NCBI GenBank assembly: GCA_016432425.1
Contig: CP066688.1
Span: 276,368 to 340,367 of the forward strand
Direction of reading: 5' to 3'
DNA from: Candidatus Daviesbacteria bacterium
GTDB taxonomy: Bacteria > Patescibacteriota > Microgenomatia > Daviesbacterales > UBA10151
Length of the DNA: 64,000 bases
Of this stretch, positions 2,370 to 47,895 are shown in pieces; position 1 is the first letter of the stretch; every line of letters begins with the position of its first letter. Below the pieces are notes generated by a model, which was not told the origin of the DNA, did not search any database, and saw nothing but the letters and a program-made list of their open reading frames with translations. The position numbers and the translations under genes are program-made.

Positions 2370-2402
2370 CTACCATCTGAAGTGGGCAAAGGCGCGGTTG
2401 GC
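2370..2402 (-). repeat. Synonymously recoded duplicate of the rpsG 3' end (ANRAFAHFRW*)
   Basis: GCC AAC CGC GCC TTT GCC CAC TTC AGA TGG TAG versus in-gene GCC AAT AGA GCA TTT GCA CAT TTT CGT TGG TAA. Confidence 0.95.
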
Positions 2403-2422
2403 CCTTCGACTTCGCTCAGGAC
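2402..2422. repeat. REP-like hairpin, CCTTCGAC-N-GCTCAGG family
   Basis: cccttcgacttcgctcaggac; related copies at 37594, 39119, 41584, 42915 and 47160. Confidence 0.85.
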
Positions 2423-2432
2423 TTCATAGAGC

Positions 2433-2909
2433 TTACCAACGAAAATGTGCAAATGCTCTATTGGCTGCTGCCACTTTTTGCATATCTTCTTTTTTCTTGA
2501 AAGCTCCACCTGTCTCTTTGGCGCCGTCCATAATTTCGGCTGCTAATTTTTGATCAAAGCTATGATACTCTTTATTGGATCTGTCGCGGGAAGCTAAAAT
2601 TAGCCAGCGAATAGCCAAAGTTTCTTTTCTGTCCCCCCGCACCTCCATTGGGACTTGATAGGAAGCTCCCCCCACTCTTCGGGGCCTTACTTCCATTTTG
2701 GGAGTAATGTTTTCAATGGCTTTTTCTAAAACTGACAGTGGCTCGGATTTTGTTTCTTCCTTTACTTGCTCCAAAGCTTTATAAACTAAACTCTGGGCAG
2801 TAGCTTTTTTCCCATCCATCATCACTCTGTTAATCAATTTTGCCACTAAAACAGAATGGTAAAGTGAATCTGGTTTAATTAATCTTTTAGTAGTTTTTCC
2901 TGATCTCAT
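2433..2909 (-). CDS. rpsG: 30S ribosomal protein S7
   Basis: RRVGGASYQVP and C-terminal ANRAFAHFRW motifs; str operon position. Confidence 0.99.
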   Translation of the reverse strand: MRSGKTTKRLIKPDSLYHSVLVAKLINRVMMDGKKATAQSLVYKALEQVKEETKSEPLSVLEKAIENITPKMEVRPRRVGGASYQVPMEVRGDRKETLAIRWLILASRDRSNKEYHSFDQKLAAEIMDGAKETGGAFKKKEDMQKVAAANRAFAHFRW

Positions 2910-28314: not shown

Positions 28315-30648
28315 TTATCTATTGAATCCGCCGCGATTTCCACCTCGGGATCCCCCAAACCCGCCTCGGCTAAAACTTCTAGCTCTGCCTGGTCCACCGG
28401 GTCTTGGGCCTCTGGAAAAACCGCCTGATCGACCTCGATCTGAAAAAGATGGTCTGCCGCTTTCTCGGGGAGGTCCAGATCGACGATCAAATCTTCGAAC
28501 GCCGCCGCTTGGCCGACCCGCTTGGCCGGAGCGAAAGCGAGGCGAGCCTTCACTCTCTGGTTTTATGTCTGCCCCAAAAAGCATAGATAAACCAATTTTA
28601 CCTTCCGGAGAAACATCAGTCACTCTCACTTTTACCTCCTGTCCCTCAGATACTATATCTTCCGGTTTTTCTACTCTACCTGGAGCCATTTGGGAAACAT
28701 GGACTAACCCATCCTTACCCGGCACAATCTCTACAAAAGCGCCAAAAGGAGCTAACCTAACCACTTTCCCGGTATAGATTTCTCCCACGGCTACTTTTTT
28801 AAACATGGCCTCTATTACTGAAACCGCCTTGTCAATCGCTTCCTGAGAGGTGGAAGATACCATCACAGTACCATCATCTTCTACATCAACTTGAGCACCG
28901 GTCCGCGAGATAATACCGTTAATATTTTTTCCACCCGGGCCAATCAAGGCGCCGATCTCTGATTGTTCAATGTGCAAAATCGCAATCTTAGGAGCATGAA
29001 TTGACAGTTTTCCCACCCCTGAAATCACTTCATTCATTTTCCCCAAGATAAACTCTCGGGCCTTTTTACCTTGGCTGAGCGCTTCTTGAATAATTTCAAA
29101 AGTTAATCCTTCTAATTTAGTGTCCATTTGTATTGCCGTAATACCGTTTTTGGTACCGGAAACTTTGAAATCCATCTCACCATAAAAGTCCTCCACTGCC
29201 CGCATATCTGTAATGACCTGAAATTTTTGCTCGTTAGAAAGCAGCCCCAAGGCCACCCCTGCCACCGGCTCTTTTAAAGGCACTCCCGCATCAAGCAAAG
29301 CCAGTGTGGAAGCACAAAGTGAAGCCATAGAGGTGGAGGCATTGGCTGCCAAAACTTCTGATACTACTCTAATGGCATAAGGAAAATTTTCTTTATCAGG
29401 AATAACATAACTTAAGGCTTTCTCTACCATGGCTCCATGTCCGGTATCGCGCCGATTGGGAGAACCAATTCTTTTAACTTCTCCTGTGGAGAAAGGATTG
29501 ATACTCATATTGTAATGGTGCATAAATCTTTTTTTCTCTTCTCCTGCCATCCCTTCAATGGTTTGCTGTAGGGAAGCTGCTCCTAAAGTAACTACCGACA
29601 AAACTTGAGTATCACCCCGCTGAAACATAGCTGAACCATGGGTGCGGGGCAGGAGTTCCACTTCCGCGGTAATCGGACGGACTTCATCCATCGCCCGATC
29701 ATCCACTCTAACTCCTTTATTTAAGATGGTCTCATTCATAATCTCTTTGGCGGCTTTATCAAACACCCGGGAGACCATTTGGGGAGTTAAAACTTCAGAG
29801 TATTTAGCGGCCAGATCTTCTTTAATCATGTCTCCGGTGGCTTCGTGCCAAGCATGTTCTTTGTCAAAAAGAGCCGTTTCAATTTTCTCGTGCGCTAATT
29901 TTTTAACCTCTGCCAAAAGCGCTTCTTCTACCTCTTCAGCCACAGTGGAATAAGTTTGTTTTTCCTTACCAGCTTCTTTGGCAAACTCTTCAATAAAGTC
30001 AATTACTGACTGGGAGTGCTGGTGAGCTTCCTGGATAGCCTTGAACATTACTTCTTCCGTTACCTGGTTTCCCCCCGCCTCGATCATGACGACTTTTTCG
30101 CGGGTGGAAGCTACCAAAAGATCTAAATCCAAATGCTCCATCTCGTTCTGCTGTGGATTGACCACGAAAGTACCATCTTTCTCACCAATTCTGGCTCCTC
30201 CCAAAGGCCCATGCCAAGGCACACTGGAAATAGAAAGAGCAGCTGAGGTACCAATCAATCCCACTATATCGGGATCGTTTAACTGATCAATGGATAAAAT
30301 AGTAATGATTACTTGGACTTCCGTTTGAAAATCTTTGGGAAAGAGAGGCCTAATGGAGCGGTCAATTAACCGACCAGTTAAAATTGCTTCCTCAGAAGGT
30401 CTTGTTTCCCTTTTAATAAATTTAGAGGAAGAAATCCGGCCACCGGCATAATATTTTTCCACATATTCTACCGATAGCGGAAAATGGCCAGTAGCTTCTA
30501 CTGTAGGTTTAGTGGCCACTGTTACTAAAGCCACTGTTTCTCCCAAAGTGACTACCACTGATGAGTCAGCCTGCAGGGCAAATTTACCAGTCTCTAATTT
30601 CAGTTTTCGACCATTAAGATCGATTTCTTTTGTTATAACTTTATTCAT
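28315..30648 (-). CDS. pnp: Polyribonucleotide nucleotidyltransferase
   Basis: Two RNase PH domains (RLIDRSIRPLFP, PRTHGSAMFQRG), KH and S1 domains, RG-rich tail. Confidence 0.98.
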   Translation of the reverse strand: MNKVITKEIDLNGRKLKLETGKFALQADSSVVVTLGETVALVTVATKPTVEATGHFPLSVEYVEKYYAGGRISSSKFIKRETRPSEEAILTGRLIDRSIRPLFPKDFQTEVQVIITILSIDQLNDPDIVGLIGTSAALSISSVPWHGPLGGARIGEKDGTFVVNPQQNEMEHLDLDLLVASTREKVVMIEAGGNQVTEEVMFKAIQEAHQHSQSVIDFIEEFAKEAGKEKQTYSTVAEEVEEALLAEVKKLAHEKIETALFDKEHAWHEATGDMIKEDLAAKYSEVLTPQMVSRVFDKAAKEIMNETILNKGVRVDDRAMDEVRPITAEVELLPRTHGSAMFQRGDTQVLSVVTLGAASLQQTIEGMAGEEKKRFMHHYNMSINPFSTGEVKRIGSPNRRDTGHGAMVEKALSYVIPDKENFPYAIRVVSEVLAANASTSMASLCASTLALLDAGVPLKEPVAGVALGLLSNEQKFQVITDMRAVEDFYGEMDFKVSGTKNGITAIQMDTKLEGLTFEIIQEALSQGKKAREFILGKMNEVISGVGKLSIHAPKIAILHIEQSEIGALIGPGGKNINGIISRTGAQVDVEDDGTVMVSSTSQEAIDKAVSVIEAMFKKVAVGEIYTGKVVRLAPFGAFVEIVPGKDGLVHVSQMAPGRVEKPEDIVSEGQEVKVRVTDVSPEGKIGLSMLFGADIKPESEGSPRFRSGQAGRPSGGVRRFDRRSGPPRESGRPSFSDRGRSGGFSRGPRPGGPGRARSFSRGGFGGSRGGNRGGFNR

Positions 30649-30709
30649 AAAATAATATTCTTCTAGTGTAGCGAGAAGTTCTCACTACGTTTGAACAATA
30701 AATTCTTGC

Positions 30710-30776
30710 GGAGTTTGGAAACTGTATAAGAAGTAATTAGTCGAGCTAATTCTTTCTTTGCAATCCCCAAAACTCC
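30710..30776 (-). promoter_or_regulatory. Long stem-loop in the pnp leader
   Basis: Nested inverted repeats ggagtttgg...aagaagtaattag-tcgag-ctaattctttctt...ccaaaactcc. Confidence 0.5.
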
Positions 30777-30824
30777 TTAACTTACTTAATTTTTTATTTT
30801 CCACCCTTCATAACTTTTCTTATT

Positions 30825-30860
30825 CTAACGTGCCAAACCCAATTTTTCAATGACTAATTT
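30825..30860 (-). repeat. Recoded duplicate of the rpsO 3' end ([11 protein letters not shown])
   Basis: AAA TTA GTC ATT GAA AAA TTG GGT TTG GCA CGT TAG versus in-gene AAG CTT GTC ATA GAA AAG CTC GGA TTA TCA AGA TAA; hairpin gttagc-gaa-gctaac at 30863-30877. Confidence 0.93.
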
Positions 30861-30893
30861 ATGTTAGCGAAGCTAACTCAAGATTGTCACGGA

Positions 30894-31163
30894 TTATCTT
30901 GATAATCCGAGCTTTTCTATGACAAGCTTATACCTTGCTTCTTCTTTTTTGGCTAGATACTGCAGTAATCTTCTTCTTTTGTTGACCATGGAAAGCAGTC
31001 CTCTTCGTGAATGCACATCATGAGGGTGCTCTTTTAAATGAGCTGTCAGATTTTTAATCTGTTCTGTCAGCAGCGCCACTTGCACTTCCGGAGAACCGGT
31101 ATCACCTTTTTTGGTGGCAAACTCTTTTATTATCTCTTGTTTCTTTTTAGTATCTAGTGGCAT
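30894..31163 (-). CDS. rpsO: 30S ribosomal protein S15
   Basis: [13 protein letters not shown] and [10 protein letters not shown] motifs. Confidence 0.99.
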
Positions 31164-31257
31164 CTTTACTCCTTAAAGATCCAACCTCGGTGCCAAGACG
31201 TTGTTCTTTGTTGGGCCCAAGTATAACAGAAATTATAAAGATATGCAACCGCTTTAA

Positions 31258-32331
31258 TTAACCACCATTTCCTTTAAAAATCTTGGGGGTCAGCCAGCCT
31301 GGCTCAATTTCATTTTCCGACACTACTGTTTCCATACTGGGCCTCTCTTCCGGAGAAGAGTTGCCTGGCTGAGAAATGGGCGCAGAATTTACTCCCACTA
31401 CCGGAGGGTTGACAAACGGCTCATTAGTAATAGGGTTAATGTTTAAAGAGGGTGGAGCCGGAACCACCGGAGTAGGTTGCACAATAGGTTGAGGACTAAC
31501 TGGAGCAGGTTGATTGGGCATGAGGCCGCTTAAATCTAAACCACCAGTTTGTAGCTGTTGACTTAAGGCCGGTTTTTGACCACCTTTTTGCAGTAGCTGT
31601 GAAACAGCCATAAAAGTATCCGCGTTAACTTTATTACTTGTTAAATTAGCTGTACCATCAAAAATTCCTGCCAGCAGATTAGTCGCTACATCTTGATCAA
31701 TATTTAAACCCAAGGAATTTAACAATACAGCAACCATCTCTGAAATAGAGGCGGCAGAGGGATCAACTATATTAGTTTGACCAAAGTTAGCGTTTGCTTC
31801 GCTGTCAATATTGACTAAATGTACTCCGGAAAAAATTGTCTGGTTAGTATAAACTGCTCCTAAACTGTTTAAATTGGCTGCCCCCAAAACAAAAATTAAC
31901 TCCGGCCTACCACCTTGGTAACGGGGGACAATTTTGGTGGGCTGAAGCGGGCTGCTGTTGGTACGGAAAATTAGTTCCATATTGCCGGCTGTAGTATTGT
32001 AATCAATATTAGTTAGATTGGGCACTTTCCAGCCTGTTTCCGAAGTAGTATCCGGTACCGCTACCCCTTCCAGAGTCACTATCAAATCTCCCCCACCTAC
32101 TTCTGGCAAGGTTTGCTGTACTTGATCTACCCCAAAAAGATGAGCTTGGGATACCCGCATGGTATCTTCCCCCACAATAGAAATTTCATATCCTGCTTGT
32201 TTTAAGGATAAATATAAGGATAACCCAGCAGCCAGTTTATCAATATTTACTCCCACTGGCAGTGCAATGAGAATATTTTTGGCTGAAGGCAGTAAGTTTT
32301 TAATTTCACCCACTAGTCCCATAACTTGCAT
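31258..32331 (-). CDS. DHH/NrnA-like protein with degenerate catalytic motifs
   Basis: Layout NILIALP...LVNIDSE...ASISEMV...ATNLLAGIF resembles DHH phosphoesterases, but DHH is replaced by DSE; Pro-rich tail. Confidence 0.7.
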   Translation of the reverse strand: MQVMGLVGEIKNLLPSAKNILIALPVGVNIDKLAAGLSLYLSLKQAGYEISIVGEDTMRVSQAHLFGVDQVQQTLPEVGGGDLIVTLEGVAVPDTTSETGWKVPNLTNIDYNTTAGNMELIFRTNSSPLQPTKIVPRYQGGRPELIFVLGAANLNSLGAVYTNQTIFSGVHLVNIDSEANANFGQTNIVDPSAASISEMVAVLLNSLGLNIDQDVATNLLAGIFDGTANLTSNKVNADTFMAVSQLLQKGGQKPALSQQLQTGGLDLSGLMPNQPAPVSPQPIVQPTPVVPAPPSLNINPITNEPFVNPPVVGVNSAPISQPGNSSPEERPSMETVVSENEIEPGWLTPKIFKGNGG

Positions 32332-42873: not shown

Positions 42874-42912
42874 TTATGATTTTAAAATACTTAAAAACGC
42901 TTCTTGGGGAAT
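42874..42912 (-). repeat. Recoded duplicate of the lepA 3' end (IPQEAFLSILKS*)
   Basis: ATT CCC CAA GAA GCG TTT TTA AGT ATT TTA AAA TCA TAA versus in-gene ATC CCT CAG AAG GCA TTT CTT AGC ATC CTG AAA TCA TAA; hairpin tccttcgactacgctcagga at 42915-42934. Confidence 0.95.
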
Positions 42913-42952
42913 TTTCCTTCGACTACGCTCAGGATTATAACTGCCCCACTAC

Positions 42953-44743
42953 TTATGATTTCAGGATGCTAAGAAATGCCTTCTGAGGGATTTCTACACG
43001 TCCTATCATTTTCATTTTCTTCTTTCCCTTTTTCTGCTTTTCCAAAAGTTTATCTTTTCTGGTTCTATCTCCTCCATATAATTTAGCTGTCACATCTTTT
43101 CTAAAAGGAGAAACGGTCTCTCTGGCAATAATGGTTCCCCCAATGGCCGCTTGAACAGCGATGGCAAAATTTTGCCTGGGTAGCACTTCTTTTAATTTTT
43201 CTACCATCCGGCGTCCAAAATTTTCAGCTTTGCTTCGAACAACTATACTGGAAAGTGCATCCACTTTCTCTCCGGCCACTAAGATGTCGACTTTGGCTGC
43301 ATCCACTTCTCTAAACTCTAAAAATTCGTAGTCCAGTGAAGCAAAACCGCTTGAAGTTGATTTTAATTTATCATAAAAATCAGTTACCATCTCTGAAAGG
43401 GACATTTGGTAAGAAAGCTCCACTTGGACTCCAAAATGCTGCATATTCACAAACTTGCCTCTCTTGTTAACAACCAGATCCATGACTGGCCCAATGTAAA
43501 CCTGAGGAATAAAAATTTTTAGAGACACCCATGGTTCTTTGATAACCTGCATGCTGCTGGGGTCAAGTTCGGCTGGGTTATGGACTATTTTCCCGTCAAT
43601 TTCATATTCCACCGAAGGGACAGTGGCTATTAGATCTACTCCAAACTCTCCTGACAACCTTTCTTGAACTACTTCCGCATGAAGTAATCCCAAAAACCCA
43701 CACCTAAAACCATTACCCAAAGCCCGGGAACTCTCTAGTTCAAAAGTAAAAGCAGGATCATTTAAACGAAATTTATTTAAAGCCTCCTTGGCATCAATAT
43801 AATCATCTTGGTCAATAGGGAAAAGTCCCACATAAACCATGGGTTTAACTTCTTTATAACCAGGCAAAGGTTTTGGCATTACACCTCCGAGGTGTGATGT
43901 GATAGTATCACCCACCCTAACCTTATCTGGTTCTTTTACTCCAGTTGCTATAAATCCTATTTCGCCAGCTCTCAGTTGTTCTGTTGATGTTAGCTGCGGC
44001 GCAAAATAACCCATCTCCAAAACTTGACCTTCAGCTTTAGTTCCTAAAAACTTAATAGAAGACCCTGTTTGGGGAACTTCTCCCTCTACCACTCTAACTT
44101 GAGCTATCACCCCTTTAAATGAATCAAAGAAGCTATCAAATATCAATGCTTTGAAACTTCCACCCTTGGAGCCGACACCTGCGGATTTTGGGGGCGGAAT
44201 ACGTTCAACTATGGCTTTTAAAAGTTCCTCTACTCCCTCTCCGGTCTTTCCGGAAACTAACAGTATCTCTGATGCTGAAAAGCCAAAACTATCAACTAAT
44301 TGTTTCTTTACTTCTTCTACATCAGCATTTGGTAAATCAATTTTGTTCACTACGGGAATTAAAGTTAAATTTTGATCCAAGGCTGAGAGTCCATGGGCCA
44401 GAGTTTGAGCCTGGATACCTTGAGTAGCATCCACTAAAAGTATTGCTCCCTCCACCGCAGCTAAAGCCCGGGAAACTTCATAAGAAAAATCCACGTGCCC
44501 AGGAGTATCAATTAAGTTTAGAGTATATTCTTCCTCAATGACATTTTTTCTATATCTATACTTTAACCTTACAGGTGCCAGCTTAATAGTAATACCACGT
44601 TCACGTTCCAAGGCTAAAGAATCCAGTAGCTGAGGTTTTAATTTATCCTTAGCAACAGTCCCGGTAATTTCTAACAACCGGTCAGCCAAGGTAGATTTAC
44701 CATGATCAACATGAGCAATAATACTAAAATTCCTAATATTCAT
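42953..44743 (-). CDS. lepA: Elongation factor 4 (LepA)
   Basis: IRNFSIIAHVDHGKSTLADR, GFRCGFLGLLH and KLLEKQKKGKKKMK motifs. Confidence 0.99.
   Translation of the reverse strand: MNIRNFSIIAHVDHGKSTLADRLLEITGTVAKDKLKPQLLDSLALERERGITIKLAPVRLKYRYRKNVIEEEYTLNLIDTPGHVDFSYEVSRALAAVEGAILLVDATQGIQAQTLAHGLSALDQNLTLIPVVNKIDLPNADVEEVKKQLVDSFGFSASEILLVSGKTGEGVEELLKAIVERIPPPKSAGVGSKGGSFKALIFDSFFDSFKGVIAQVRVVEGEVPQTGSSIKFLGTKAEGQVLEMGYFAPQLTSTEQLRAGEIGFIATGVKEPDKVRVGDTITSHLGGVMPKPLPGYKEVKPMVYVGLFPIDQDDYIDAKEALNKFRLNDPAFTFELESSRALGNGFRCGFLGLLHAEVVQERLSGEFGVDLIATVPSVEYEIDGKIVHNPAELDPSSMQVIKEPWVSLKIFIPQVYIGPVMDLVVNKRGKFVNMQHFGVQVELSYQMSLSEMVTDFYDKLKSTSSGFASLDYEFLEFREVDAAKVDILVAGEKVDALSSIVVRSKAENFGRRMVEKLKEVLPRQNFAIAVQAAIGGTIIARETVSPFRKDVTAKLYGGDRTRKDKLLEKQKKGKKKMKMIGRVEIPQKAFLSILKS
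43877..43899. repeat. Copy of the transposase-flanking hairpin in-frame inside lepA
   Basis: cattacacc-tccga-ggtgtgatg versus atcacacc-cccga-ggtgtgat at the transposase ends; peptide SHLGGVM. Confidence 0.8.
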
Positions 44744-47121: not shown

Positions 47122-47157
47122 TCATAATAAATAGATATCAATGAAGTGTGCCCTCCA
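47122..47157 (-). repeat. Recoded duplicate of the G5/3D gene 3' end (WRAHFIDIYLL*)
   Basis: TGG AGG GCA CAC TTC ATT GAT ATC TAT TTA TTA TGA versus in-gene TGG AGA GCT AGA TTT ATT GAC ATT TAC CTC TTA TGA; hairpin acttcgccgtagctcagt at 47160-47177. Confidence 0.93.
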
Positions 47158-47193
47158 GCACTTCGCCGTAGCTCAGTACTTTCGCGCTAGATT

Positions 47194-47895
47194 TCATAAG
47201 AGGTAAATGTCAATAAATCTAGCTCTCCAGCCTGCTATTCTGGCATCATCAAAGCCTAGATCTATAATATTTCCTTTGATTGCTCCACCAGTGTCCCCTG
47301 CCACTGCCACTCCGTATCCGGGGACATAAATTTTACTTCTTAAGTTTATAACTTTGGGATCAACTGCGATCACTCCCTTACCAGCTTTCATTCCGATGGC
47401 TGTCCATTCATTACAGCCAGGGCACCTGGAATCATAGTGAGTGGCATAAACCCTCATTTTTTTCCAATATCTAATTTCACCCTCAGGAGTTTGTATACTT
47501 TTCCAGACAATTTTGGTCCCCCGCAAAATTTGTTTATCTTTGGGGATAGTCACTTCCGTGGAGATAACCTCTCTCTTCCAAGGCTTACCTTCAAAATAAG
47601 TAACTTTAGTAATGATCGTTTTTTTACCATCCACCCCTTCATCTATTACTTTTTCAATTTCCGCATCAACTTGCGGATCATCTTGATAAACAATACTTTT
47701 GGCAATAATTTCTCTACTTTCCTCCAATTTTTCGGAAAAACGAGACTCTGTATGGAGGGGCTGGCTGGCTGGCAAAGAATCATTAACAACTGGCTGGTTG
47801 CCAGGAGCCTCTGCTAAAACAACTGTCCCCATCCAACCTTGCTGGAATAAAAATGAAGTCATCACAATTAATAAGGCACCTAGATAACGTTCCAT
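47194..47895 (-). CDS. G5 and 3D domain cell-wall protein (YabE/Sps-like)
   Basis: G5-like EGVDG...ILRGTK; 3D motifs IAVDPKVI and AGDTGGAIKGNIIDL. Confidence 0.9.
   Translation of the reverse strand: MERYLGALLIVMTSFLFQQGWMGTVVLAEAPGNQPVVNDSLPASQPLHTESRFSEKLEESREIIAKSIVYQDDPQVDAEIEKVIDEGVDGKKTIITKVTYFEGKPWKREVISTEVTIPKDKQILRGTKIVWKSIQTPEGEIRYWKKMRVYATHYDSRCPGCNEWTAIGMKAGKGVIAVDPKVINLRSKIYVPGYGVAVAGDTGGAIKGNIIDLGFDDARIAGWRARFIDIYLL

Follow-up and report, generated by a model that had tools for sequence, protein, structure and literature searches.

A gene-less double-hairpin unit at a duplicated rpsO gene end in a Daviesbacteria genome

The closest described parallels to the insertion analysed here come from fungal mitochondria, where mORFs with C-terminal replacement (atp6 in Allomyces; atp6, atp9, cox2 and nad3 in Glomus) place a foreign, synonymously diverged gene end in frame and displace the native end downstream, with a homing endonuclease gene between the two copies, as set out in the available part of PMC3630166. 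Double-hairpin elements (DHEs) of the same organelles are described, in the accessible portion of PMC10085805, as small and gene-less, with two adjacent hairpins and inferred mobility across species; they are GC-rich, near-identical between copies and mostly intergenic, and that portion names no enzyme for them. Among systems that act on single-stranded DNA, SsnA, which is active during transformation, cuts immediately upstream of its hairpin (PMC11893778, sections consulted), and the Y1 enzymes of REP/RAYT and IS200/IS605 elements work on hairpins with conserved mismatches, whose foot carries a guide that selects the cut site by DNA-DNA pairing (PMC8266576, sections consulted). Insertions with long target duplication, often in competent species, likewise generate long and variable duplications without a transposase or integrase, according to the part of PMC2853133 that was available.

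We analysed a window of 64,000 nt, the whole stretch to which the coordinates below refer, from the single-contig genome (820,589 nt) of a tiny groundwater bacterium assigned to Candidatus Daviesbacteria. The gene rpsO (ribosomal protein S15, 89 amino acids; 30894..31163, minus strand) is an open reading frame matching TIGR00952 at 125.7 bits, over the cut-off; gene names other than rpsO and the searched Pfam families reflect recognition of the sequences rather than database assignments. Its functional last 11 codons and stop (copy 1, 30894..30929, minus strand), beginning T^AAG, recur as an orphan gene end (copy 2, 30825..30860, minus strand), which the direction deduced at other sites suggests is the displaced resident allele. 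A sequence-only reading had placed a duplicate of 12 codons at these coordinates, 69 nt from stop to stop, and both positions and distance were borne out, the 12 codons being strictly 11 sense codons plus the stop. Its tally of nine silent differences, one non-synonymous difference and two identical codons also holds, as eight silent changes plus a TAA versus TAG stop, one S/A replacement and two identities. The copies are identical at 23/36 nt, and the pair scored 49 against a best control of 33 among 443,010 control pairs; simulated random mutation at 12 positions of copy 1 gave a mean of 7.0 amino-acid changes and never one or fewer in 20,000 trials. Single contigs from 4/4 runs, all of one study that is possibly the source of the genome, span the site with zero differences and, as far as such contigs can tell, speak against an assembly artefact. 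The rpsO gene-end duplicate is confirmed as real.

Folding of the 69-nt unit (30861-30929) gives a pair of hairpins with an energy of -15.5 kcal/mol (z -5.24; 0/200 shuffles), and substituting copy 2 for copy 1 weakens the fold (-9.3 versus -13.9). Hairpin 1 uses copy 1 itself as left arm and loop. Its right arm (30880..30893, minus strand), assigned from the fold, is an inverted copy of copy 1 across a 10-nt gap with one mismatch, such that all 14 nt 3' of the stop mirror the start of copy 1 and the pairing reaches into the stop codon; among 212 upstream positions, the start of copy 1 is the best partner of this arm. Next come a GA linker (30878..30879, minus strand; GC in most relatives), hairpin 2 (30863..30877; a 6-bp stem whose loop reads GAA in the template strand and TTC in the mRNA strand) and an AT dinucleotide at the right junction (30861..30862, minus strand; TA in most relatives), after which the orphan copy 2 begins. 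The spacer between the copies thus measures 33 nt and holds no open reading frame. The sequence-only reading had correctly located hairpin 2 but saw only half of the element, missing the larger hairpin 1 that is its defining feature. Written generally, the design is T^[hairpin 1]-GC/GA-[hairpin 2]-TA/AT^AA; in the rpsO unit hairpin 2 takes a minimal form, with a compensatory stem swap (GTTAG/CTAAC for GATAG/CTATC) and the GA/AT junction.

Compared with mORFs, the locus shares a duplicated gene end with the upstream copy in frame and would, on the reading favoured below, also have its native end displaced, but has its short spacer where mORFs, in the account available, carry an endonuclease gene; it further differs from what the consulted part of PMC3630166 describes in having a host-templated inverted arm and in targeting many unrelated genes and tRNAs. 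With DHEs it shares small size, two adjacent hairpins without an open reading frame, a presumed mobility across species and the lack of a known enzyme, whereas the GC-rich conserved sequence of the DHEs (PMC10085805, in the portion available) is missing: hairpin 1 differs from target to target and is rebuilt from each, with long target duplications. Membership in either class was rejected, on the missing endonuclease gene and the rebuilt hairpin 1 respectively. Insertions with long target duplication differ in carrying restriction-modification genes between near-identical repeats, and the sections of PMC2853133 consulted describe no hairpin rule. We found no description of this design in the largely non-subscription literature covered.

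The polymorphism among relatives that the sequence-only reading anticipated was present. The rpsO-pnp region is mostly single-copy and in some cases stacked, and cargo-bearing duplications lie at other genes. The duplicate occurs in two of 70 genome loci (this one and L057) and in eight of 80 metagenome loci, including a triple stack, with a ninth, shorter one found later; by hand count, 149 loci comprise 134 distinct alleles, of which 11, from about 10 lineages and with L123 and L129 as deviant forms, carry the unit, the remainder being single-copy. Spacers of the relatives have YTT-GC-GATAG..CTATC-TA-AA in common. A search with this hairpin found it in 21/401 genomes of the class, 11/29 of the own family and 8/26 of one other, with zero in controls, and the records with the same hairpin include Daviesbacteria and Curtissbacteria among the matches listed. 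The sites lie behind rpsG, rpsC, rpsS, rplL and genes for an RseP-like peptidase, LemA and an EamA transporter, and also at tRNA 5' ends. When 1.39 Mb of enriched loci were scanned by structure, 25 units were recovered against 0 in reversed controls, and the unpaired 2+2 junction reads GC/TA in 22 of them. The duplicated stretch varies from 2 to about 30 codons, and its states range from identical copies (L185) through the triple stack (L057/L128) to decayed second copies (L008, L480). The system is real, recurrent and mechanistically constrained. Two loose-pattern searches were uninformative, their controls being as high as or near the signal, and a loose-pattern match in G015 was rejected for having no duplicate there; a genus search around G056 returned G056 itself alone, and most of the matches listed by whole-collection scans are chance.

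This analysis adds two rules for these units: the arm matches the upstream copy, and the target is T^AA. Read as its reverse complement, the sequence just 5' of GC gives the start of the upstream copy, and that start is the arm's best partner, among up to 212 positions, in 14/19 units with clear duplicates; at sites that distinguish the two copies, the arm is complementary to copy 1 in 32 cases and to copy 2 in one. A T precedes copy 1 in 18/19 of these units. For units found by hairpin 2 alone (26 of 27 scorable), a T stands before the best partner in 21/26 (null 23%), and arm scores reach at least 7 in 14/26 (null 9.5%) and at least 9 in 10/26 (null 1.2%), although all of these unit counts include kin and so overstate independence.

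Within this genome the design was found three times, a structure-based scan giving 3 units against 1 control match. Besides rpsO, a GA/AT unit forms a 42-nt in-frame, antisense insert inside uvrC, at a point where the proteins of five relatives are shorter, and another lies at the end of an agmatinase-like gene, where the two copies differ in residues and length. The three have a common TT-GA-[stem]-AT-AA junction and three different hairpin-2 sequences, which in part upholds the earlier suggestion that hairpin structure or position matters more than one exact sequence. The exact rpsO/uvrC stem pattern occurs in 1/96 family genomes, this one, so the donors of the GA/AT units would be unsampled. 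A genome-wide scan also revealed similar C-terminal duplicates 63-88 nt behind rpsG, lepA, a 238-aa gene with weak cell-wall-binding matches, and groES, and a weak one at a glycosyltransferase gene. Three lie in the window on the minus strand, at the ends of rpsG (2370..2465, with a 7-bp inverted arm 3' of the stop), lepA (42874..42994) and the 238-aa gene (47122..47229, with a 9-bp inverted arm). At rpsG, lepA, the 238-aa gene and groES a CCTGAG..CGAAGG repeat, of a different kind from the rpsO hairpin, abuts the second copy on the coding strand; the further suggestion that several element families use one strategy is to this extent supported. The repeat is scattered through the genome and also sits just upstream of a 90-aa stand-alone GIY-YIG gene adjoining tRNA-Gln. 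Right behind this tRNA, an ~85-nt direct repeat (L001 1340-1495 and 2540-2630; G000 about 751,550-752,840) brackets the GIY-YIG gene and a membrane-protein gene. Inside lepA (43175-43223), the assembly and the contigs of all four runs differ at six positions, reflecting either a local assembly error or a strain difference.

Like the Ssn (SRM/NTS) system in the part of PMC11893778 available, the unit has a strand-specific hairpin, a junction just 5' of it and a putative link to transformation, and both this genome and its relatives contain small GIY-YIG genes with hairpin repeats on their flanks. In contrast, that part describes no insertion or gene-end replacement for Ssn, and a by-eye comparison with the motif as given there found no NTS/SRM hairpin motif in the unit. 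From the REP/RAYT and IS200/IS605 systems the unit differs in its target-specific arm of 5-19 nt, as opposed to the fixed tetranucleotide guides and CT/CA cuts of the accessible account (PMC8266576), and the local Y1 genes have other hairpins. No enzyme gene adjoins the units in the nine neighbourhoods inspected, and the rpsO-type hairpin family is absent from all 47 Y1 and GIY-YIG loci: in five genomes that carry units, 0/24 GIY-YIG loci (10 small GIY-YIG genes inspected) have a flanking rpsO-type hairpin of the kind expected for an Ssn-type cognate gene, and 0/23 Y1 loci do. DUF559 genes gave 0/5 genomes, with no link to the hairpin. The CCTGAG..CGAAGG-type family does flank small GIY-YIG genes. 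The 2-9 Y1/RAYT-like genes noted per family genome (L488-L507, L532-L534) mostly lie between short direct hairpin repeats of their own, and in L513, L519 and L523 small GIY-YIG genes lie between a hairpin-interrupted duplicate tRNA 5' end and the whole tRNA. The latter genes are candidate autonomous relatives, and given that their loci have the geometry of the tRNA units, our first guess at the enzyme would be a small stand-alone GIY-YIG (Ssn-like) nuclease and our second a Y1/HUH enzyme. The modes of action of SsnA and Y1 would both fit the unit geometry, and the rpsO junction, 2 nt 5' of hairpin 2 on the template strand, is compatible with Ssn-like single-stranded DNA cleavage upstream of a hairpin. 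The genome has ComEC-family and DprA genes.

Evidence on direction comes from other sites. At the EamA gene, 2/19 congeners are filled and 17/19 empty; in L466 the end of the second copy resembles that of the empty alleles L473 and L476, and the downstream DNA resembles L473, supporting a resident downstream copy and a foreign upstream one. Another site is filled in one of three congeners and empty in two. At rpsO, comparison with the nearest relatives singled out neither copy as resident. Of 24 nt at the rpsO gene end, 23 agree with L092, an allele that carries a unit, and 19 with the next best allele; by its gene body L092 takes rank 57 of 123. As a sign of the donor the gene-end match is suggestive only, because fold-back forces part of it.

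To call the duplicate "recoded" overstates its divergence, which is near that of close orthologs. Paired copies have 47/134 codons in common, and this 35% falls slightly short of the 40-57% of matched ortholog pairs. Where orthologs agree at 83-84 of 84 amino acids, they mostly have only 48-67% of codons in common; most of the pattern is therefore explained by a donor from a neighbouring species, and a recoding machine is unnecessary. The deviant allele L129, with 8/27 codons in common, falls below all 17 ortholog pairs with 27/27 amino acids, and this small excess may stem from deletion loss of near-identical repeats. A tally of 105 synonymous to 13 non-synonymous differences is biased in that the pairs were found by protein similarity. 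Dedicated recoding was rejected on the near-equal divergence of close orthologs, and a diversity-generating retroelement on the C/T, C/G, T/G and T/A differences between copies, which are not adenine-specific.

We favour, at a rough probability of 0.58, the reading that a gene-less double-hairpin unit from a related species inserted at T^AA in the rpsO end, supplying a new end and pushing the old one downstream; such a non-autonomous unit likely homes between relatives. At the birth of a unit, a hairpin-2 end would be joined to a target. Synthesis by fold-back would yield a reversed copy of the gene end, and a switch of template, at the stop codon or immediately beyond it, would restore that end; only events preserving the stop would survive. 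Hairpin-primed fold-back with a switch near the stop would account for long perfect arms at new targets, often beginning at TAA. To spread, the unit would enter in single-stranded form, probably through transformation. One side would be anchored by homologous recombination, either within the gene body or within copy 1, and at the homologous T^AA a putative trans-acting, hairpin-recognising single-stranded DNA nuclease would fix the second junction, with arm-target pairing as an aid. One recombination-anchored side and one enzyme-fixed junction would together explain foreign first copies, intact second copies, stacks and spacers common to different hosts, and the apparent recoding would be the synonymous distance between donor and recipient. 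A bolder version, possible though rather doubtful, is a self-programming DNA-guided homing element in which each insertion writes its own guide by fold-back, such that one single-stranded DNA enzyme could serve any gene end or tRNA and C-termini of essential proteins would be swapped between species. The arm is well matched to the copy-1 boundary and partly matched to the copy-2 boundary; because it pairs poorly with copy 2, there is no support for long guide pairing as the sole basis of target choice. If the arm is a true guide, the enzyme would be a programmable single-stranded DNA integrase. The fixed junction and target-derived arm define concrete oligonucleotide substrates, making what moves protein-less hairpin elements directly testable.

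That the unit was instead built in the recipient while a foreign gene end was being captured, and need not pre-exist in donors, is improbable. Incoming DNA would recombine into the gene body, its free end would fold back and a resident hairpin 2 would cap onto the old end, a sequence of steps that accounts for the arm matching copy 1, for the variable duplication lengths and for the private junction subtype that this genome has at three genes. It fits poorly with rpsG, where homologous arm-plus-hairpin spacers are common to different hosts (L185, L192, L221), and with the L185 arm, which fits another host's codon better despite the identical copies of that allele and must therefore have travelled.

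Less probable again is an origin with no dedicated enzyme, by replication template switching at quasi-palindromes followed by ordinary or homology-facilitated illegitimate recombination. It is evident that the arm arose by fold-back, the neighbourhoods and Y1/GIY-YIG loci inspected link no enzyme gene to the units, and homology-facilitated illegitimate recombination is on record for naturally competent bacteria (PMC3240628, in the part available). However, the fixed unpaired 2+2 junction, the hairpin-2 stem conserved at unrelated targets and the T that lies outside the pairing all point to protein recognition.

An old local duplication, kept in place with both copies under selection, through precise excision and re-insertion or through a function in regulation, with hairpin 1 acting as an mRNA structure and copy 2 as a pnp promoter, while synonymous sites drifted, has a slender chance. 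Both copies agree in host-specific residues far above random orthologs (27/27 and 27/28 amino acids; 27/27 in 0.2% of ortholog pairs and either value in <1%), and a promoter-like site upstream of pnp (30822..30850, minus strand), resting on a 10/12 consensus match and being one of 3 found against 1.6 expected, overlaps copy 2. A promoter would not preserve amino acids, however, and decayed second copies exist; neither an excised nor an empty rpsO allele appeared in this population among contigs of the four runs, which drop rare variants. Occurrence is also patchy, and units lie at tRNAs and inside uvrC. As a separate observation on the pnp leader (30700-30780, minus strand), most of the loci L003-L060 have a conserved motif pair, TTTGGGGATTGCAAAG ... 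ACAGTTTCCAAA, around a variable centre, which is probably an RNA leader with structure; Rfam gave 0 matches at E<=1 over 30500-31300, which covers the unit and this leader. An assembly artefact or chance repeat has a negligible probability, for although the read support comes from one study, possibly the source of the genome, recurrence in independent assemblies refutes it, and the control scores, spanning contigs and mutation simulation also speak against it.

In reduced genomes, then, essential genes can take insertions undamaged and exchange their last codons across species, and this one genome holds six or seven such gene-end events. Among wider observations, C-terminal duplications of infB and dnaJ lie 410-770 nt apart in L092 (2439), L104 (4822), L117 (2506) and L088 (2104); the junction motif is not evident in these four and no nuclease was found in the cargo cases inspected, and three enclose small genes that we take to resemble toxin-antitoxin or antitoxin modules. 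In giant-virus-like contigs among the matches listed (L338, L340, L341, L407 and L409, about 1500-1570), the TT-GC-[hairpin]-TA-AA junction recurs in intergenic units arranged in tandem; their first hairpin is short, and coding copies are absent. L184 and L247 have units with a minimal first hairpin around 1500, with no transposase nearby, in sequence that to our eye resembles IS200/IS605 ends. Finally, a unit in L536 apparently lies, antisense, in what we presume to be the 3' end of an RNase P RNA gene.
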